DNA of 18,188 bases from a virus. Its lineage: Duplodnaviria > Heunggongvirae > Uroviricota > Caudoviricetes. How positions within the stretch are numbered: the stretch's first letter is position 1; each line of letters begins with the position of its first letter. A program made the position numbers and the translations under genes. The notes below the pieces were generated by a model. The model saw only the letters and a list, made by a program, of their open reading frames with translations, made no database searches and was not told where the DNA came from. The stretch lies in the IMG/VR virus record IMGVR_UViG_2671181094_000006; one strand, given 5' to 3'. Of this stretch, positions 1,295 through 18,188 are shown piece after piece.

Positions 1295-1502
1295 ATAAAT
1301 TCCTTGTATATCCAGAGTAATAGCTGTGCATAGTCTATGCGATTTCATCCTACTGCTATAAAACATCAAATTCCATAAACATAACCATCAATTAGTTATA
1401 AATGCCTCGATGTTGAATGCGTCCCCCATACTCAACCGGGAATGGGCTGAGCACATTTATCATGACTGTGACCACCAGCCATGACGGCGGATTGTCATGA
1501 AT

Positions 1503-1547
1503 TACTAATGTATGATAGCACTGTCATACAATAAGGAATCTCCCACT
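1503..1547 (+). promoter_or_regulatory. conserved promoter/operator of paralog A (TATGAT -10-like element inside the inverted repeat TGTATGA-N8-TCATACA, then AAGGAA RBS)
   Basis: About 45 bp upstream of the start is conserved with the equivalent region at 5885-5929 (tgtatgatag..ct.tc..acaataaggaa). Confidence 0.45.
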
Positions 1548-1907
1548 ATGAGACTAACCAGCCGCAAAAAGACGATACTCAGCTACTTCGAACCGGATAA
1601 CCGCGACTGGGTGACGGGTGAGATCGGCGCACCTCCCCTTGATGTATCCGGCGTGGCGTACCTGCTGTATGGGACAGGCCTCGAAGACAACCGGCACTGG
1701 CTCGAATCCACCAGACGAACGCTGGAAGCAATGGTGAAAGATGGGTTGCTGGAGAGGTACCGGAGCAGGGAGGCGCGGAGTATCGTTATGGGCGGCGAGA
1801 CGACCGCTACCGTTGTCCGTTACGGCCTGCCGGGTACCGTTTCAGTGGTACGCGATACGGGAGGTGCAGACGGCACGATAGAAGGCGAATATGTGCGGGT
1901 CGTTTAA
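1548..1907 (+). CDS. conserved hypothetical protein, paralog A1 (119 aa), possible winged-helix-like regulator
   Basis: MRLTSRKKTILSYFEPDNRDWVTGEIGAPPLDVSGVAYLLYG... aligns along its whole length with the 5930-6289 product (MRMTSRKKEILSYFEPDNRDWVTGEIGAPPFDVSGVAYLLHG...). Start and upstream region are conserved between the two copies. Confidence 0.7.
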   Translation: MRLTSRKKTILSYFEPDNRDWVTGEIGAPPLDVSGVAYLLYGTGLEDNRHWLESTRRTLEAMVKDGLLERYRSREARSIVMGGETTATVVRYGLPGTVSVVRDTGGADGTIEGEYVRVV

Positions 1908-2095
1908 CGACGTGGATTATCTGGCCTCTTCCACTGGTAGGCTGGTGCCGTCATCCTCCGGCGGTGCCGTTCTTTAGCAGCGAGCGTTCCCGCAACCCTG
2001 CAACGTAACTCCAGCATATCGGTGGCATTCAGCTCATTCCCCTGCAGGCGGGCCAGCTCTTCAATTACCGCCTCGATTTTCTTCTGTTTTAACAC
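1904..2095 (-). CDS. small hypothetical protein A2 (63 aa, GTG start) with C-terminal APAYQWKRP...RR motif
   Basis: Convergent with A1, with the stops overlapping by 4 nt. The C-terminal motif is shared with the 6945-7130 product (RAPAYQWKKPAPRR). AGGAA lies 8 nt upstream of the GTG. Confidence 0.5.
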   Translation of the reverse strand: MLKQKKIEAVIEELARLQGNELNATDMLELRCRVAGTLAAKERHRRRMTAPAYQWKRPDNPRR

Positions 2096-2201: not shown

Positions 2202-2789
2202 TTAATCGGTATCGTCGGCCAGGGCATACAGCAACGAAGGGATCACTCTCCGCATGGCTGTTTCTTCGGTTTCATCGCTCATGAGAGTCAGGGTGTAATC
2301 CCGGCACTCGTAAATCACATCATATGCAGACAGGCCGAACGCGCCGCCCGCAATGATCTGCCCAATTTCAACATCTGGCGTTTCAACAATCGACAGCCGG
2401 TAGCCGCCGAACGTCACAGGAGGGTTATAAGGCCCTTCGCTTACAAACAGCTCTACGGCCTTTGCAGCAACCTGGGCTCGTTCGTCCGGGTCCACCCCGG
2501 ACACCTTACCGGCACCTGACACCATGATGCGCTTAATCTCCGCAACACTCATTTCCACCAGCGTATACCCCTGCACCTCACCAGCTGGAGCAGGCTTGGT
2601 TTTACCCCTGGCATTCTTCGTACGCGGGTCACTGGCGCTGCGGTATCGTGCCAGATAAGTATCACAGGCCTCCTGGTCAATCTTCCCGTCAACCCGCGCC
2701 GGAAATCCTTCATGACTCTCCCAGTTATACAGTGCCTGCCGGCTCATTCCGGCATGTTTTGCGTACTGGCTGACGCTCATTAGTGACAT
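2202..2789 (-). CDS. HTH DNA-binding protein, phage Nu1-like (small-terminase-like N-terminus) / packaging-associated candidate
   Basis: N-terminus VSQYAKHAGMSRQALYNWESHEGFP resembles the lambda gpNu1 winged-HTH pattern (KKQLADIFGASIRTIQNWQEQGMP). AGGAG lies 7 nt upstream of ATG 2789. The gene sits beside a dense TGTCAA repeat array. Confidence 0.6.
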   Translation of the reverse strand: MSLMSVSQYAKHAGMSRQALYNWESHEGFPARVDGKIDQEACDTYLARYRSASDPRTKNARGKTKPAPAGEVQGYTLVEMSVAEIKRIMVSGAGKVSGVDPDERAQVAAKAVELFVSEGPYNPPVTFGGYRLSIVETPDVEIGQIIAGGAFGLSAYDVIYECRDYTLTLMSDETEETAMRRVIPSLLYALADDTD

Positions 2790-3137: not shown

Positions 3138-3563
3138 TTAATGAACTTCCGGCATCACAGGCCATTCAATATCTGGGGCATCATCAGGGTTAACACGACT
3201 GAGCAGAACGGAGTATTTTTCCCAGTGTTCCAGTCGCGTTTTTTCATCCAAGGTAGCCATTCCGTATTTCACAGCACGCGCTAAAGGGACGATAACGTCC
3301 TCAGCCTTTGTACGTTGCCGCTCTTTTTCAGCCCCAGCCAGCCTGGATAACTGTGCTTTGGTCTGTGGAGGTACATCGACCCACGAGGGCAAGCCATCAG
3401 CCCCTACCCCCCTTTGCTTACCTTCTGGTGGAACCCTGGTGAACTCGTGAAAAACGTTATCACTGACTGCTATAAGGTCCGCTGGTAGAGAATTGTTGTC
3501 CCGATAAGCTGGTAATAATTCATCAGGGTAAAAACACGCCGTTGACGCACTAAAATGATACAT
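3138..3563 (-). CDS. tail fibre assembly protein (Tfa-like chaperone)
   Basis: Start MYHFSASTACFYPDE and C-terminus HWEKYSVLLSRVNPDDAPDIEWPVMPEV match the conserved ends of phage Tfa chaperones (...W.KYR.LL.RVD...APDIEWP..P). Its ATG at 3563 follows the upstream TAG at 3566-3568 closely. Confidence 0.7.
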   Translation of the reverse strand: MYHFSASTACFYPDELLPAYRDNNSLPADLIAVSDNVFHEFTRVPPEGKQRGVGADGLPSWVDVPPQTKAQLSRLAGAEKERQRTKAEDVIVPLARAVKYGMATLDEKTRLEHWEKYSVLLSRVNPDDAPDIEWPVMPEVH

Positions 3564-3565
3564 GA

Positions 3566-4099
3566 CTATTCCCCTATAGCTAACCATCCAAAATTATCTG
3601 CATTACCCGAACTGCCGCTGATCCAGCCATATGCACGGAAACCGGAATTGGAATCATTGGTTACGGACACGTAACGATTTCCATCTGCGTACTTCGTAGC
3701 AACAATAGCAATAGCCCGCTTAGGAAAAGGTATCGGATACTGAACATTACCTGATGGTGAATTAATAGTGGCAGTTCCCATTTGAACAATAATATTTTTC
3801 TTTTCACCTGATGGTGTTCGGGTAGGAATAATACAGTAACCCTGTGAAGTAAGGGCACCTACGATGGGTTCAGATAGAAGGGCGGTGATCCTCAACTCAT
3901 CAATAACTTCGTTTAACTGACCATCATTTTCAGGCTCAAGCTGGCGGCCAGAACCCTCTACCACGCCCACCATCTCACGCTGCCAGGTATTAAAAATATC
4001 GGCAACAAGAATTGTTGGTGATACCCCATTAGCAACATTACCTTGTGTAAATTCCCCATTACTATCAGCAGTATCAGTGACTGAACTTATCTTACGCAT
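3566..4099 (-). CDS. tail-fibre-tip-like protein (177 aa), too short for a full fibre
   Basis: Directly upstream of and coupled to tfa, which is the usual fibre-chaperone arrangement. The C-terminal half is Gly/Ser/Asn-rich and looks beta-rich (...GWISGSSGNADNFGWLAIGE). The call is mainly positional. Confidence 0.45.
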   Translation of the reverse strand: MRKISSVTDTADSNGEFTQGNVANGVSPTILVADIFNTWQREMVGVVEGSGRQLEPENDGQLNEVIDELRITALLSEPIVGALTSQGYCIIPTRTPSGEKKNIIVQMGTATINSPSGNVQYPIPFPKRAIAIVATKYADGNRYVSVTNDSNSGFRAYGWISGSSGNADNFGWLAIGE

Positions 4100-5884: not shown

Positions 5885-5929
5885 CTTATTGTATGATAGT
5901 GCTATCCCACAATAAGGAACCTGCCAGCC
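5885..5929 (+). promoter_or_regulatory. conserved promoter/operator of paralog B (TATGAT -10-like element, inverted repeat GATAG-N2-CTATC, AAGGAA RBS)
   Basis: Conserved with 1503-1547. Confidence 0.45.
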
Positions 5930-6289
5930 ATGAGAATGACCAGCCGCAAAAAAGAGATACTCAGCTACTTTGAACCGGATAACCGCGATTGGGTAACAGG
6001 TGAGATTGGTGCGCCGCCGTTCGATGTGTCGGGTGTGGCCTACCTGCTTCATGGCATGGGATCATTCGGTAAACGCCACCAGCTCGAATCAACCCGGCGT
6101 ACGCTCGAAAGCATGGTTGCCGGTGGACTGCTTGAGCGAATGACAGTGTATGAATCCCGTCAGGTACGGCGCGGCGGTGAAACCAGCGCAACAGTCGTGC
6201 GCTACGGTTTACCGGGACAGTGTGCCGTTGTGCGAGATAGTGGCGGCGCTGATAACGCAATACCAGGTGAATACATGCGGGTCAGTTAA
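5930..6289 (+). CDS. conserved hypothetical protein, paralog B1 (119 aa)
   Basis: Full-length similarity to the 1548-1907 product; about 80% nucleotide identity over the first 130 nt by eye. Confidence 0.7.
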   Translation: MRMTSRKKEILSYFEPDNRDWVTGEIGAPPFDVSGVAYLLHGMGSFGKRHQLESTRRTLESMVAGGLLERMTVYESRQVRRGGETSATVVRYGLPGQCAVVRDSGGADNAIPGEYMRVS

Positions 6290-6824
6290 GAGCCTGCAAT
6301 CTGTCGTTGATGCGGCTCAGGTCGTAAACCCGGCGTTCAATATCCAGCATCAGGAAATTGTGGATCTCGGCCTGCTCAGGATTATCAGACTCTCTGGCCT
6401 GTAATAGCAATTCATTGTATCCATGCAAGCCGCCTGAGTTTTCCGCCGGGGTGGTGCCTTTCCCACGCAGGCAGCTAATGGGCTGATTACTCGTATCGTG
6501 TGTTTGCTTCTCCAGCACAATGACGCAATCCCACCAGTCGCCAAAGTCATACGTGTAAACCAGCTTGTCACCCTCATTCTGGAGCGCTGCCCATAGTGGT
6601 GTGATTGCCGCGTTACCCATGCTTTCACCCTCACCCCATACGCGATACTCGCTACCTAGATCACCTTTACGGCCTTTCTCGAACATATACAGATGTTCGT
6701 CATTCCAGCCAAAAGCCAACTGGATCACCGCGTGAAGTTCACTAAAGGGGATTTGCTCTGGAACCAGCACACGCCGCCATATTGGTGGTTTGCTGTCTCG
6801 GATGGTTATCTTTAGCTGGTACAT
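6282..6824 (-). CDS. pRiA4b ORF-3-like family protein (start taken at MYQLKITIRDSKPPIWRR)
   Basis: The N-terminal signature YQLKITIRDSKPPIWRRVLVP...LHAVIQLAFGWNDEHLYMF matches my recollection of the PRiA4b ORF-3-like domain. AGGA-containing RBS upstream of ATG 6824. Stop overlaps the B1 stop by 8 nt. Confidence 0.6.
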   Translation of the reverse strand: MYQLKITIRDSKPPIWRRVLVPEQIPFSELHAVIQLAFGWNDEHLYMFEKGRKGDLGSEYRVWGEGESMGNAAITPLWAALQNEGDKLVYTYDFGDWWDCVIVLEKQTHDTSNQPISCLRGKGTTPAENSGGLHGYNELLLQARESDNPEQAEIHNFLMLDIERRVYDLSRINDRLQALN

Positions 6825-6944
6825 GCAAATCCTGAATAAATGCGAATCGGAAGGATAACGATACTGACGCACTCACAATTCTGTAAAGGTGAATAAAGGT
6901 AATTTGCTTAATACGCATAAGTTACATGTGGAATAATCCCATAT

Positions 6945-7130
6945 CTACCTGCGCGGCGCTGGCTTCTTCCACTGGTAGGCAGGCGCTCGCATCATCTCCC
7001 CGAACCGTTTACGCCGGACTGTATCAGCTTCAATAATACGTTCCATCTCCCGAACCTCTACCGGGGTAAGCTGGTGGCCTTCATGCTCCATTTTGGCAGC
7101 GGTCAATAAAGCTATTTCGCGTGGTGTCAT
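6945..7130 (-). CDS. small hypothetical protein B2 (61 aa) with C-terminal RAPAYQWKKPAPRR motif
   Basis: Paralog of the 1904-2095 product by its C-terminal motif. ATG at 7130. Confidence 0.55.
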   Translation of the reverse strand: MTPREIALLTAAKMEHEGHQLTPVEVREMERIIEADTVRRKRFGEMMRAPAYQWKKPAPRR

Positions 7131-7266
7131 ACGCCATACCCTTTGGAAGGATGAAACACGCCCGGATTAAATTTTATTTTTCGCGGGTATAAACATTCGA
7201 TGAGGCGGGCAGTGCTTAAGGCTCAGGATTGCAGAGATTTGGCCTCCCCCTCCCGGTGATAGTTTA

Positions 7267-7363
7267 TTGCTTGATGTGGACGGCTTGCTATATTGGCGGA
7301 GAATGCAAATTGTCGCAGAAGTCTATCCCGCTCCCTGACGCCCCGTGCGGGCGTTTTGCTTTT
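7267..7363 (+). ncRNA. candidate small RNA (about 60 nt): sigma70-like promoter plus intrinsic terminator on the plus strand in a minus-strand gene context
   Basis: -35 TTGCTT (7267-7272), 16-nt spacer, -10 TATATT (7289-7294). GC-rich hairpin ACGCCC-CGTGC-GGGCGT (7338-7354) is followed by TTTTGCTTTT. No ORF of substance. Confidence 0.25.
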
Positions 7364-7973
7364 ACAAAGTCAGGCCAATGCCTCTGGCTGCTTTCCCCGT
7401 CTTACGCTCAATCACGCCCGTGATTCTATCTACTACCGGACTGAATGCCTGCCAGTAAGCCATCTCCATTGCTGACAACTCTGCCCGCTTCCTGTCAAAC
7501 GTAGCCCAGCGCATCCCCTTTGGTTTTGGGAACATGCGAATATCATTAAACAGGTTATTGGTAAGGTCATTGTTGCCCCATATCGCGCATCGCTGCTGGC
7601 GTATCTTCATTCGCATCCTGTCCAGTCTGTCGGCGCTCTGGCTTTTATAGTGGAGTTTCCAGCATCCCCGGCAGCCAATATCTTTTTTGCCGATATACAG
7701 CTTCGCTACCCGCTTTATGCAGTGGGGACAGACGTACCATTCCCGCACACCATACCCGGCTTGTGTGGTCGTGGTTCTGATTGCCCGTGTAACGCCGTTG
7801 ATTGTCATGGCGTAGCTGTCGGCTTGCCGGAAGGTATAAAACGTTCCGCTTTCGGTCTGGGTATAAAGCTGCGTCCCCGGTTCGGCGTCCGCCAGCCTGC
7901 TACGCATGTGCGCAAGGAATGGCAACCCTATGCGGGGCAGGTCGGTGGTATAGCTGCGTGTTCTGCCTCTCAC
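7362..7973 (-). CDS. conserved island protein with putative zinc ribbon (CPHC...CRGC); possibly YagK/YfjJ (inovirus Gp2-like) family
   Basis: 203-aa ORF with GTG start at 7973 preceded by AGGAGG at 7 nt spacing. Cys pairs lie in WYVCPHCIKRVAKLYIGKKDIGCRGCW. The family assignment is from memory and weak. Confidence 0.6.
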   Translation of the reverse strand: MRGRTRSYTTDLPRIGLPFLAHMRSRLADAEPGTQLYTQTESGTFYTFRQADSYAMTINGVTRAIRTTTTQAGYGVREWYVCPHCIKRVAKLYIGKKDIGCRGCWKLHYKSQSADRLDRMRMKIRQQRCAIWGNNDLTNNLFNDIRMFPKPKGMRWATFDRKRAELSAMEMAYWQAFSPVVDRITGVIERKTGKAARGIGLTL

Positions 7974-9567: not shown

Positions 9568-12345
9568 TTATTGCTCTGGCTGGCTTTCCTCCCCATCCGG
9601 CAGGAATTGCAAAACGTAAACGTTAATCTGCCTCCCCTGAATGCGCGGGCTTTTCCTCTGAAATTTTTTTCCGTCTGCCGAAGGGGTAAGCATCCCCGAT
9701 TCTTTCAGGACGCGGGCCACCTGCTGCCTGTTAAACCCCTTAGCAATATCCTTATCGAAAGTGTCGGGGAACGTGTAAAACGTTATCGGTGAATCGTCAT
9801 GATTTCCGCGCTGCCTGTATCCAGCCAGATTATGAATCGGCAGGCTGGCGGGGTCGTAAGGCAGCGGCGCGAATCGACTCAGGCCATAGGCATTTAAAAA
9901 TGCCTCCGCCTGCTCGATGATCTGCTGGTGCTCTTTGTTCCCCGTGCCGAACTCTTTTAGCCATGCGTTATAGGCGTGCTGTATCGCATCCCGGCACGTT
10001 TGAGCATCCCAGCCAGTAACCACGCCACCCATCAGTAAAGCGGCCTCCAGAATGGCAAATCTTGCCCCTACACGGTGAACCTGTTCCCCATAGTCGGCAG
10101 GAATTAGACTGCGCCAGCGGGCCTCACACTCACGAACGGCATCAATCGCCTGTTGCTGGTGGTCTGAAAGCCATCTGATCCACTCCCTCCCGGCAGCGCC
10201 ATGATGGTTCTGGTAAGCGTCTTTCAGCGCGTCGGCGTGGTCTCTCCCTGTCTGGTACTCATGAAAGCGCACCGCCTTACTCAGCGGGATATTCAGCAGT
10301 CGCACCAGTTGCCCCGCTTTTGTCTTGCGTCCTGCGGTGGAGATGAACGTTTCTAAATCCATTTCCCCGGTGCTGATTGCCACGGTGCGCCAGCGTTTCA
10401 GATCCCGGTTGCCTCCTTCCTTTGCTCCCTGCAATTTCCCCACGCCGTTAAACAGGGCATAGGCAGACTGAGCAACGCTTATCGGGTCTGCGCCCTGTCC
10501 GACTTCATCCAGTGGCATCAGCCCGTCATTGTGGGCGGCGGCCTCGTTTATCAGCCCCAGCGCCGTTCCGTACCACGTCAGGCGCAAGGCATCAGGGTTG
10601 CCATAAAGACTGCTCGCCACGTTCTGCGTGGTTGTTTTCCCGGCGCTCGATTGCTCGTAAAAATGAATCCCGAAGCCGTCACGCTCCGCCAGCCCGATTA
10701 ACGGTGCTGCAAGTGCGGCGGCAATGCCTGTCATCATCGCGTAGTTACCGTATGCCAGACGCGCAACACTCTTACGCCAGCTCTCTGAGGTTCCCGCCAC
10801 GGTGTACCCGGCAGCGGCAGAACTGCGGCCACTGAATAAAACGGGTTGTGCAGGTGCGCCGATAATCTCCCCGTCCGGCATGATGTATGCCCCGCACTGC
10901 CAGCCAGTAGCGTGAGCAACACGCCACAATTCACGTGAGCCGCTACGCTGTAACCAGTCAGCCAGAATCGCCCGCAAGCTGCTTTTGGTGGTGACGTTAA
11001 CCCCGCCCGCTTTCAGGGTGCGCCAGCCTTCGCGCTCCCCGATATCAGCCAGGGGGATAGCCGCTGTTGTCGGTATGCCTGCGCCAAAGGCCAGCCAGCG
11101 TAATATCAGATACTGATCCTTGTCGTCCCGCCCGGTGCCGATAACGTCCATCGGTGAGGCCAGCCAGCTTTCATTGTTGATAATCTCGCCGCTTTCCTTG
11201 TCCACTTTAGGCGTGATCCAGTAAACGCCATCTTTGCGGCTCTCAATGCGGGGTTTTAGCGGGTCTTTCTCTGGCTGGTCAGTTTTACCGCCCTCAATGG
11301 CCTGTAGTTGTGGTTTCACGCATTCCCCCTGCGGCTGGTACATCGAATCATTAAACGCAGCCGTAGCGACTTCCAGCCCGTGTTGCTGGTGGTAGTCGTT
11401 CCAGTCAGCTTTGCTGTCAGTCGGTGGCAGCGATACCCAGCCAGCCACGGATAAAGCCGCTTTCTCTGCGGCCTCCTTCCCGATGTTGGTGGCTCCGGTT
11501 TCGGAGGCTGCTGTAGGGTGGTCGTTATCTGCGGCGATAATAATTTGCGACTGCGGGTGTTTCCGGCGCATTACTCCGGCAACGTGGATCAGGTTCCCGG
11601 CGTCAATTGCCGCCACTGTGAGCGCGTCAGGCCGCATCTGGTGAACGGACAGGGCGGTAGCCAGCCCCTCGGCAATCACGACGCTTTGAGGCCGTTCCAG
11701 CGCGTTTACGGCGTAATATGCCCCGCGCTTTGCCGATCCCTTAATGAGTCGCTTTTCTCCCTGCGGGGTGATGGTCTGCGCGGCTGTGACTGCGCCGGAT
11801 TCATCCACCAGCTCCAGCAATAACGAACCATCGGGCATAAGCGGGTATTTAAACCCGGTCAGCCCTTTTGATTGCAGGTACTCAGATTCTCCCTGTATGG
11901 ATCTCAGGCGCATTCCGGTATACAGACGGGCAAACGTAGCCCTTCGCTGATCTGCGTCCTCTGCTGCCTGTTTCTGGCGCTCCTGCTCACGCTGCTGGCG
12001 GTCTGCGGCTAACTGCCTCTGTCTCTGGCTGGCAGCGTCTGGTGCTGATTCTGCGGCCCGGTAATCAATACCCAGCACATCAGCGGCAAGCTGTGCCGCC
12101 TCCGTGGTGTCGCAGTTGTTCACCTTCTTAATCAGGTCTAAGCCATCGCCCGCGCCGCACTGGTTGCAGATAAAGCTGCCGCGCCCGTTGTCGTCGAATC
12201 TGAAACGGTCTTTCCCACCACATGCAGGGCAGGGGGCATGGCGGCGCGATGAATCAGGAACGTCGATAGACAATCCGGCCAGCACATAAGGCCATCGCCC
12301 TGCTGCGGCGCTGGTCACTTCGCGGATAAGGTCGATATTACGCAT
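9568..12345 (-). CDS. primase-helicase (P4 alpha-like: N-terminal zinc ribbon, TOPRIM primase, C-terminal P-loop NTPase)
   Basis: 925 aa. Zinc ribbon CPACGGKDRFRF...CNQCG, TOPRIM acidic motifs (VVIAEGLATALS ... IIIAADND), Walker A-like SSAGKTT. GGGAGG RBS upstream of ATG 12345. Confidence 0.9.
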   Translation of the reverse strand: MRNIDLIREVTSAAAGRWPYVLAGLSIDVPDSSRRHAPCPACGGKDRFRFDDNGRGSFICNQCGAGDGLDLIKKVNNCDTTEAAQLAADVLGIDYRAAESAPDAASQRQRQLAADRQQREQERQKQAAEDADQRRATFARLYTGMRLRSIQGESEYLQSKGLTGFKYPLMPDGSLLLELVDESGAVTAAQTITPQGEKRLIKGSAKRGAYYAVNALERPQSVVIAEGLATALSVHQMRPDALTVAAIDAGNLIHVAGVMRRKHPQSQIIIAADNDHPTAASETGATNIGKEAAEKAALSVAGWVSLPPTDSKADWNDYHQQHGLEVATAAFNDSMYQPQGECVKPQLQAIEGGKTDQPEKDPLKPRIESRKDGVYWITPKVDKESGEIINNESWLASPMDVIGTGRDDKDQYLILRWLAFGAGIPTTAAIPLADIGEREGWRTLKAGGVNVTTKSSLRAILADWLQRSGSRELWRVAHATGWQCGAYIMPDGEIIGAPAQPVLFSGRSSAAAGYTVAGTSESWRKSVARLAYGNYAMMTGIAAALAAPLIGLAERDGFGIHFYEQSSAGKTTTQNVASSLYGNPDALRLTWYGTALGLINEAAAHNDGLMPLDEVGQGADPISVAQSAYALFNGVGKLQGAKEGGNRDLKRWRTVAISTGEMDLETFISTAGRKTKAGQLVRLLNIPLSKAVRFHEYQTGRDHADALKDAYQNHHGAAGREWIRWLSDHQQQAIDAVRECEARWRSLIPADYGEQVHRVGARFAILEAALLMGGVVTGWDAQTCRDAIQHAYNAWLKEFGTGNKEHQQIIEQAEAFLNAYGLSRFAPLPYDPASLPIHNLAGYRQRGNHDDSPITFYTFPDTFDKDIAKGFNRQQVARVLKESGMLTPSADGKKFQRKSPRIQGRQINVYVLQFLPDGEESQPEQ

Positions 12346-16961: not shown

Positions 16962-18188
16962 TTAATCTCTATTCGCTACAGGTAACAGAACCACATTTTT
17001 ATGATTACCCGCAAGAAGTTCTAAACGTTCATGCCATTTGTTCAGCGCATCCAGCTTCTCCGGCAAGTACAGGCTACGGTTATATATAGCCATGACGCCC
17101 GGTAGAGCATGACCCAGCAGCAACTCTACAATATGCGGTGCTATGCCCATATTGTTTAACCCCGTGGAGAACGTGCGCCGCAGATCGTGAAGTGTCCACG
17201 GCTCGTTATGATGGAAATCTTTAAAAAGCCGTCGCCCTTTCAAAGATACAGCTTGCCGGGTGCGCTCTTCTCCCAGCAGCAGGCCTGTTTTACCCGTCTC
17301 GCGTTTTAACTCTTCCAGCCACGGGCGTATAGCTTCAGGGATTGATCTCACGATTTTCTCGCGGGTTTTGCTGTGCTCTTTCGGGACTGTCCAAATCCAC
17401 GAGGTAAAATCCCACTCCGACCATCGAGAGAGGCGAACTTCCATCGTTCGAGCGCCAAACAGCACCAGCATTTTGAGAAGACGTGAATAATACGGCTGCT
17501 GATCATCGCTGTCTGTGCAGCGCCATACATCGGCCAGCTCGCTATCTGACAATACGCGGTCACGTTGACCGGATGGCTGGCCTACATCCTGAATGGTGAG
17601 AAAGGCTAGAGCATCACTGGCGGCATAGCGGCGAACCTTGCAGAAGCGTAACGCCTGTTTAGAAATCTGGAACATGCGGCCGGCGGTCATGGGTTTGGTC
17701 AGATTTATTTCATCAAAACAGGCCACCCAATGACGGGTTTCACATCTGGTGAGGGGATAACGACCAAGGCGCGGGTAAATATGCTTGCGTAGCTGTGCCC
17801 TTACCAGCTCCTCATCGCTGCGCTTTCTCCTGGCGTAGTTCACCAGCCAGTATTCGAGAGCATCCTGTACTGTCACAGGTTTAAGCGTTTCTTCGGTGCT
17901 CAGTTCAAGCTCTGTTTTTGGATCAAGACCACCAGCCAGCCACTGGCGACACTTTTCCCGCTTTTCTCTCGCCGCTTTTAGCGACAAATCCGGGTAACGG
18001 CCAAGCGTTAAACGTTCGAGTTTGCTACCCCTTCCGCCCAATCGGTAAGCGAACACCCAGCTAACGTTACCTTGCTTCGAAACCTTAATGCTCAGTCCTT
18101 CACCATCGGCAATCATGATCGGTGCTTCACGCTCAGAACCCTGCAGCGCTTTTAGCTTTTTGTCGCTCAGTTTGTTTGTACCAGCCAT
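16962..18188 (-). CDS. int: tyrosine recombinase, P4-type integrase (N-terminal arm-binding domain plus catalytic domain)
   Basis: 408 aa. N-terminal DGEGLSIKVSKQGNVSWVFAYR resembles the P4-family arm-binding motif. C-terminus has HDLRRTFST and LLGHA...AIYNRSLY (catalytic R, H-x-x-R, Y). The start codon sits exactly at the window edge, so the true N-terminus could lie beyond it. Confidence 0.9.
   Translation of the reverse strand: MAGTNKLSDKKLKALQGSEREAPIMIADGEGLSIKVSKQGNVSWVFAYRLGGRGSKLERLTLGRYPDLSLKAAREKREKCRQWLAGGLDPKTELELSTEETLKPVTVQDALEYWLVNYARRKRSDEELVRAQLRKHIYPRLGRYPLTRCETRHWVACFDEINLTKPMTAGRMFQISKQALRFCKVRRYAASDALAFLTIQDVGQPSGQRDRVLSDSELADVWRCTDSDDQQPYYSRLLKMLVLFGARTMEVRLSRWSEWDFTSWIWTVPKEHSKTREKIVRSIPEAIRPWLEELKRETGKTGLLLGEERTRQAVSLKGRRLFKDFHHNEPWTLHDLRRTFSTGLNNMGIAPHIVELLLGHALPGVMAIYNRSLYLPEKLDALNKWHERLELLAGNHKNVVLLPVANRD

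Follow-up and report, generated by a model that had tools for sequence, protein, structure and literature searches.

The pRiA4b-like gene at 6282-6824 of the DNA analysed here (18,188 nt of a Caudoviricetes virus, IMG/VR record IMGVR_UViG_2671181094_000006; hereafter the window) raises the question of how it came to lie between two genes that directly abut in a second, paralogous copy of the same module, and what it might do there. The initial annotation had answered the first part of this question with a cargo insertion into an otherwise conserved two-gene unit, and had noted that the family is often annotated as a passenger of insertion sequences (IS).

The coordinates and pairwise comparisons bear out the arrangement from which that reading started. 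In module B, the slot is anchored by B1 (5930-6289, plus strand), which encodes a 119-aa winged-helix protein. It is followed by the pRiA4b-like gene (6282-6824, minus strand; 180 aa plus stop), the B1-proximal resident of the slot, then by a 120-nt leader sequence between the B2 stop codon and the ATG of the pRiA4b-like gene (6825-6944, minus strand), and finally by B2 (ORF at 6945-7130, minus strand), which encodes a small protein of 61 aa and forms the other conserved border. In module A, A1 (1512-1907, plus strand), a paralogue of B1 with 74% identity, anchors an empty slot and overlaps A2 (1904-2095, minus strand), which is homologous to B2 with 35% identity, tail-to-tail by 4 nt; in module B it is B1 and the pRiA4b-like gene that overlap tail-to-tail, by 8 nt. 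The C-terminal motif APAYQWKxPxPRR is common to B2 and A2, and A2 matches phrog_7271 (E 7e-25), a family without assigned function.

The gene that precedes each module differs. Upstream of A2 lies a gene with a small-terminase-like N-terminal HTH (2202-2789, minus strand; 195 aa; phrog_57, E 8e-8 over residues 1-65), and upstream of B2 lies p203 (ORF at 7362-7973, minus strand), a conserved gene for a Cys-rich protein of 203 aa. B2 adjoins p203 in L001-L008, L029, L032 and L037, and p203 is 92-98% identical across syntenic loci; L026 has two p203 paralogues. The Pfam scan of p203 gave no match, and its four-Cys motif (CPHC...CRGC) suggests a zinc ribbon. More than 535 clusters, none of them named, make up the B1 family, and those with a source name come from Enterobacterales; a sequence search of the PDB with the B1 profile gave no match. 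In L009-L012, L017 and L026 a gene of about 145 aa starting with MSKSLSVTFRVPAEL lies directly 3' of the B1 homologue on the same strand. This gene has a ribbon-helix-helix-like N-terminus, is conserved in many relatives outside E. coli, has no Pfam match and is absent from the window.

The product of the gene at 6282-6824 belongs to the pRiA4b ORF-3-like family, as had been proposed from its sequence. The translation opens with MYQLKITIRDSKPPIWRRV, and an AGGA Shine-Dalgarno motif lies 5 nt 5' of the ATG; a longer GTG-started ORF (6282-6872) was rejected because homologues begin at MYQLK. The protein matches PF07929 (PRiA4_ORF3) over profile positions 3-167 of 173 with E 1.8e-42 and 145.4 bits (gathering cut-off 26.6 bits), and it matches MM3350 (PDB 2I1S), the only solved member of PF07929, with E 6e-22. 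MM3350 is a Methanosarcina mazei protein, and a solved structure for PF07929 dates from 2006. The product has the fold of MM3350, a single domain made up of a beta-grasp-type core and a C-terminal helical bundle, in which no catalytic domain was detectable and for which the Pfam scan returned neither a recombinase nor an HTH domain. Alignment of 52 sequences, some of them homologues with no more than 30-40% identity, showed that the family residues W16, R17, R18, H31, H44, YTYDFGD (90-96), W98, P126, G131 and G132 are invariant or at least 90% conserved. With dN/dS values of 0.05-0.23 against ten homologues, the pRiA4b-like gene is a real gene under purifying selection, and RefSeq annotation already gives it its family name.

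Within PF07929 the window protein falls into a separate enterobacterial clade, the members of which are 57-100% identical to each other and at most 41% identical to all others. The family is found in 712 plasmid records and also in transposons and is rare in phages, a few of which carry distant homologues; family members have been described as passengers of ISAzba1/ISKra4-type transposons, often beside serine recombinases (PMC3942029). Whereas other members thus reside on plasmids or transposons, the window gene resides on a phage satellite and has no adjoining transposase or recombinase. The contexts of the distant homologues in L034-L036 are heterogeneous, with no recurring partner nearby. 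PADLOC and PHROG scans of the pRiA4b-like gene, B1 and B2 matched no model, and a Foldseek search against viral structures returned nothing with E below 1e-3. In the searchable literature the family appears only in annotations and in the transposon-passenger note, and no report on its function was found.

The window is a phage-inducible chromosomal island (PICI) of the EcCIMP1 type that adjoins hpt (1-537, at the start of the window). A tyrosine-integrase ORF, named from homologous annotated islands, occupies the far end (16962-18188), and directly downstream of it, before the next gene, lies a full-length int-alpA RNA (RF02996; 16886-16953, minus strand; 62.6 bits, E 3.6e-11), the only Rfam match of the scan. 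The island further encodes a putative AlpA-region ORF, Bro-N, a Zn-ribbon/Toprim/DUF927 primase, SSB and PerC, and modules B and A lie in its int-distal part. Neither capsid nor lysis genes were matched among the scanned ORFs. An integrase at one end, a putative AlpA-type regulator, a primase/replicase, a length of about 10-20 kb and the lack of capsid and lysis genes together identify a PICI. Unusually for a PICI, the minus strand at 3138-4099 also has a pair of tail-fibre-related genes. One encodes a short tail-fibre protein of 177 aa (Gp53-like_C, E 1.7e-10) and the other a tail-fibre assembly chaperone of 149 aa (Caudo_TAP, E 1.3e-30). Megablast found no match to the pair in the phage collection, and L001 and L038 lack it at the corresponding position, which thus constitutes a second variable slot.

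EcCIMP1, an experimentally validated PICI of E. coli MP1 that depends on phage Kapi1, provides immunity against superinfection, yet none of the known defence systems was found in it (Pick et al. 2025, PMC11773190). Among these islands, helper-phage-dependent excision, replication and packaging have been shown experimentally only for EcCIMP1. EcCIMP1 ends in PerC, a 186-bp hypothetical gene, a gene of the pRiA4b ORF-3 family and an opposite-strand 360-bp hypothetical gene, and its terminal trio resembles that of the window closely (B2 75%, pRiA4b-like protein 98% and B1 90% identical; the pRiA4b-like gene of EcCIMP1 is at NZ_CP139039 3566271-3566813). The annotated gene classes also agree, comprising integrase, HTH/AlpA regulator, antA/AntB antirepressor, Toprim-DUF927 primase and PerC. 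The two islands differ in integration site (tRNA-Thr near proA in EcCIMP1, hpt in the window), in the second module (the window has A and B, EcCIMP1 lacks A) and in that EcCIMP1 carries ejection-protein genes where the window has the tail-fibre and chaperone genes. Searches within that report found no discussion of the trio (PMC11773190).

An island of the same family has been assembled as a circle (L039; NZ_CP033626.1, K. pneumoniae 'plasmid unnamed1', 22,859 bp). In this assembly several kilobases of genes are present twice, and across the junction the integrase adjoins B1 and the pRiA4b-like gene. Genes for a tape-measure protein and for superinfection immunity are also carried, and the circle may represent an island that has been excised or is replicating.

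Classifying the content 3' of B1 in 25 loci that encode B1 homologues, with one genome per species, revealed that the interval between the module borders is occupied by different genes in different relatives. It holds the pRiA4b-like gene in E. coli, Enterobacter, Kluyvera and Lonsdalea and is empty in Yersinia (L015) and in Shimwellia (L007), where 20 nt separate the B1 and B2 stop codons in an island that is otherwise syntenic with that in the window (p203-PerC-SSB). Two loci contain defence systems recognised by PADLOC HMMs: ShosT/ShosA in L022 (6388-7997; E 4e-49 and 2e-100), from a genome labelled Chryseobacterium sp. 18061 the contig of which looks enterobacterial, and SoFic in L021 of Cedecea davisae (6558-7700; E 1.6e-46); B1 is truncated in both. 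L009 has an M78/CapP-like peptidase with a membrane protein, L011 has a SocA/Panacea antitoxin-domain gene with a partner, and several further loci have other genes without assigned function. Cargo may also be stacked, as in E. coli F8 (L040), which has the order B2, Panacea pair, pRiA4b-like gene, B1, and in Klebsiella L027, which has the order B2, Dabb gene, pRiA4b-like gene, A1. Non-defence genes (Dabb, PAS-GGDEF) also occur in such slots. In total, at least eight contents, the empty state included, lie between borders of the B1 family and the B2/A2 family.

With its conserved flanks, its variable content and the established defence systems ShosTA and SoFic among that content, the slot qualifies as a true accessory hotspot like those reported for PICIs and P4-like satellites. 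The immune systems of PICIs are reported to lie at either the 5' or the 3' end of the island (He et al. 2024, PMC11364771), and the hotspots of P4-like satellites (Rousset et al. 2022, PMC9122126) and of Gram-negative PICIs likewise have conserved borders, element-specific content and defence systems; the slot described here is int-distal, as reported for PICI immune genes (PMC11364771). The accessible parts of these two reports do not name the B1 or B2/A2 families as hotspot anchors. In contrast to the reported hotspots, the slot is present in the window island as two paralogous copies, of which only that in module B is filled, and the resident gene matches no PADLOC defence system.

That the slot is swappable is also evident at nucleotide level. 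E. coli VG1046-3E9 (L038) has a related island at the same hpt site with module A filled by a pRiA4b-like gene. Window positions 1300-1907, the A1 region, are 96% identical to L038 8901-9508 and positions 1923-2791 are 84% identical to L038 10466-11326, and between these blocks 957 bp in L038, including the pRiA4b-like gene, replace 15 bp of the window. This junction comparison supports an exchangeable content. No transposase was found among the ORFs within module B, and the sequence around 6282-6944 has no direct or inverted repeats beyond chance 10-mers. A vestigial B1 3' end upstream of the pRiA4b-like gene, placed by MAFFT, was considered and discarded, since the match comprised only 12 nt and 36 of 2000 shuffles reached its score. 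No remnant of a pRiA4b-like gene was detectable in the empty module A of the window; since module A is occupied at the same hpt site in L038, its empty state in the window could equally be due to a loss. The variability of the slot across genera, with two empty loci and others filled differently, therefore upholds the part of the initial annotation that saw cargo in a conserved two-gene unit, and the direction of change and the IS-passenger context find no mark in the sequence, which has neither transposase, terminal repeats nor scar. Within E. coli the picture differs from that across genera, in that B-type modules are essentially always occupied. The module-B region is present in 386 of 5,426 complete E. 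coli genomes (about 7%), and about 319 of 381 flank-carrying genomes are occupied (span of 1,245 bp versus about 610 bp). A megablast search of the 5,426 genomes with the empty Shimwellia junction ranked no empty B-type site above an occupied one, from which we infer that, at the sensitivity of megablast, such sites are absent from these genomes.

The pRiA4b-like gene keeps a constant relation to its neighbours. We examined 17 loci of the enterobacterial clade, counting the window. In 14 of them the gene converges tail-to-tail on a near-full-length member of the B1/A1 family, and in a 15th (L033) the adjoining B1 matches are only fragments. The overlap is 8 nt in every case in which both genes have been annotated or called. 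The 124-nt spacing to the B2 coding sequence is the same in the other B-type loci of E. coli, Enterobacter, Kluyvera and Lonsdalea, and the 120-nt leader is nearly identical in the Enterobacter and Lonsdalea loci. The alleles of the gene co-vary with the A-type or B-type flank (Pearson r 0.70): B-type proteins are 91-100% identical to each other, the outliers L029 and L032 aside, and A-type proteins (L038, L027/28) are 90% identical to each other and 72-76% identical to B-type proteins. This divergence mirrors that of A1 and B1 and would fit an old association, or co-transfer, with B1. At synonymous sites the gene is less diverged than the adjacent B1 in most B-type loci (dS 0.07-0.29 versus 0.30-0.41), by two- to five-fold in several of them, which suggests that the allele spread more recently than its flank, and in L032 the two are about equal (0.53 versus 0.49). 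In L029, which has frameshifts elsewhere and is maybe error-prone, and in L032, B1 is 88-92% identical and the pRiA4b-like protein only 63-80%. Taken together, these conflicting identity and dS signals indicate recombinational shuffling.

The geometry of module B also bears on how the gene may be expressed. B1 is the sole gene on the plus strand within a long array of minus-strand genes, and no terminator was predicted at its overlap with the pRiA4b-like gene, so that convergent transcription from B1 into the latter, judging from this arrangement, seems unavoidable. The pRiA4b-like gene would be translated from its own ribosome-binding site, and its transcripts would arise from a promoter of its own or by read-through of the leftward PerC-p203-B2 array; antisense transcription from B1 may set its level. 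The leader holds a weak promoter-like site (TTTACA-18-TATCGT, 6887-6858), and the promoter scan was not above chance (4 sites versus 2.3 expected); the Rfam scan identified no RNA family in module B. A 15-nt inverted repeat, CTTATTGTATGATAG / CTATCCCACAATAAG (5885-5916; 87% complementary in the repeat search), lies 14 nt upstream of the B1 start, and a related palindrome, TGTATGATAG-CA-CTGTCATACA, precedes the A1 coding sequence in the alignment (about 1500-1550); the two are candidate operators for the winged-helix B1 and A1 proteins. A2 and the pRiA4b-like gene lie 400 nt apart in module A of L038, and the spacer holds a strong terminator-like hairpin, AATCCCGCCATCGTGCGGGATTTTTTT (10240-10310, minus strand), so that the gene is probably an independent transcription unit there, unlike in module B with its 120-nt spacer. 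In having an opposite-strand gene within a same-strand array, module B resembles the non-contiguous operons of phages and PICIs (Tai/Ati of phage phi80; He et al. 2024). It is like them also in that the 3' ends overlap with no terminator predicted at the overlap, and differs from them in that the coupling is deduced from geometry.

Combining these observations, we suggest that the pRiA4b-like gene is an accessory gene at the B1-proximal end of the slot bounded by B1 and B2 and that it is a reasonable candidate for a function in phage conflict. The product may restrict or exclude competing or superinfecting phages or, conversely, protect the island, and it might do so non-catalytically, through sequestration or alteration of a macromolecule of the phage or the host. 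Such a stand-alone binding protein in the conflict between phage, satellite and host, with the defensive and the island-protecting polarity counted together, is the reading that we tentatively put forward at somewhat less than an even chance. We arrive at it because (i) the gene occupies a hotspot that contains defence and toxin-antitoxin genes in relatives, (ii) the family prefers plasmids, transposons and satellites, is found in few phages and has a fold resembling a binding module, and (iii) the superinfection immunity of EcCIMP1 is without explanation. Counting against it, the hotspot position is circumstantial and the same slots hold non-defence genes, neither PADLOC nor PHROG models nor a functional report in the searchable literature lend support, and distant homologues sit alone in unrelated chromosomal contexts. 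Moreover, His31 and His44 are invariant and Cys118 is near-invariant in the 52-sequence alignment, and these residues could belong to a catalytic centre or bind a metal, either of which would weaken the case for a protein that only binds. A more specific version, which we estimate to be unlikely, is that PICIs of the EcCIMP1 type have in the MM3350-like protein a new, single-gene factor for phage exclusion. It would explain the superinfection immunity of EcCIMP1 against Kapi1, and its level would be set by convergent transcription from B1.

The near-fixation of the gene in E. coli B-type modules and its co-variation with B1 count against cargo, as they equally fit a core or B1-linked role. In this scheme the pRiA4b-like protein would be the functional partner of B1, as effector or cofactor of a regulator, and the true variable site would lie between this pair and B2. 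The tail-to-tail arrangement in 14 of 17 loci, the constant overlap and the co-variation of allele and flank type all argue for it, as do the stacking of extra cargo, in the Panacea pair of L040 and the Dabb gene of L027, on the B2 side and never between the gene and B1, and the similar cluster sizes of B-type B1 (about 1,451 members) and of the three top pRiA4b-like clusters (about 1,405). Most of the surveyed loci of the large B1 family, however, lack a pRiA4b-like gene, and in L030 and L031, as across the wider family, the gene has no B1 beside it; the well-conserved B1 beside the diverged pRiA4b-like proteins in L029 and L032 also speaks against an obligatory pair. We consider such a partnership improbable, without being negligible. 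Somewhat less probable again is that the protein acts as a counter-defence or establishment factor that helps the island or its helper phage to overcome the immunity of the host or of rival elements after transfer, a proposal with which the conflict reading overlaps. Plasmids, transposons and satellites, on which the family is enriched, are elements that need to establish themselves in new hosts, and the small binding-type fold without catalytic signature and the distant homologues in a few phages are in agreement with it, but the protein has no similarity to any known anti-defence protein and the identifiable slot contents in relatives are defence or toxin-antitoxin genes, not anti-defence genes.

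The Pfam family text describes the TnpR label as lacking supporting evidence. This historical label is the origin of another proposal, in which the protein would be a DNA-binding cofactor for recombination, transposition or packaging in the life cycle of the island. One truncated E. coli copy is annotated as 'IS1096 element passenger TnpR family protein' and a mycobacteriophage homologue as 'resolvase', and together with the association of family members with ISAzba1/ISKra4-type transposons and serine recombinases, a resemblance to SNAPC3 and the presence of the gene in nearly all E. coli B-type islands, these labels point in that direction. Yet the gene is dispensable in the syntenic Shimwellia island and absent from module A of the window, and its product has neither a recombinase nor an HTH domain, so that we regard this role as doubtful and the least likely of the three alternative functions. 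As to origin, that a transposon-borne passenger recently dropped into the B1/B2 unit of this genome is suggested by the other family members that ride IS elements. No transposase, inverted repeat or target duplication flanks the gene, however, and the same overlap and spacing recur in E. coli, Enterobacter, Kluyvera and Lonsdalea and in about 300 E. coli genomes, which leaves so recent an event with hardly any probability; it is effectively excluded.

The status of the pRiA4b-like gene as variable satellite cargo is thus supported, and the directional claim of an insertion and its IS-passenger flavour are unsupported. This assigns a clade of PF07929 to a defined slot with exchangeable content in a satellite family that is present in about 7% of complete E. 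coli genomes and has an experimentally tractable member in EcCIMP1. B1 and B2, previously unnamed border genes, could help to mine cargo, including defence systems, from the satellites of Enterobacterales. If true, the phage-exclusion reading would provide the first function for PF07929, a family spread over hundreds of plasmids and transposons.
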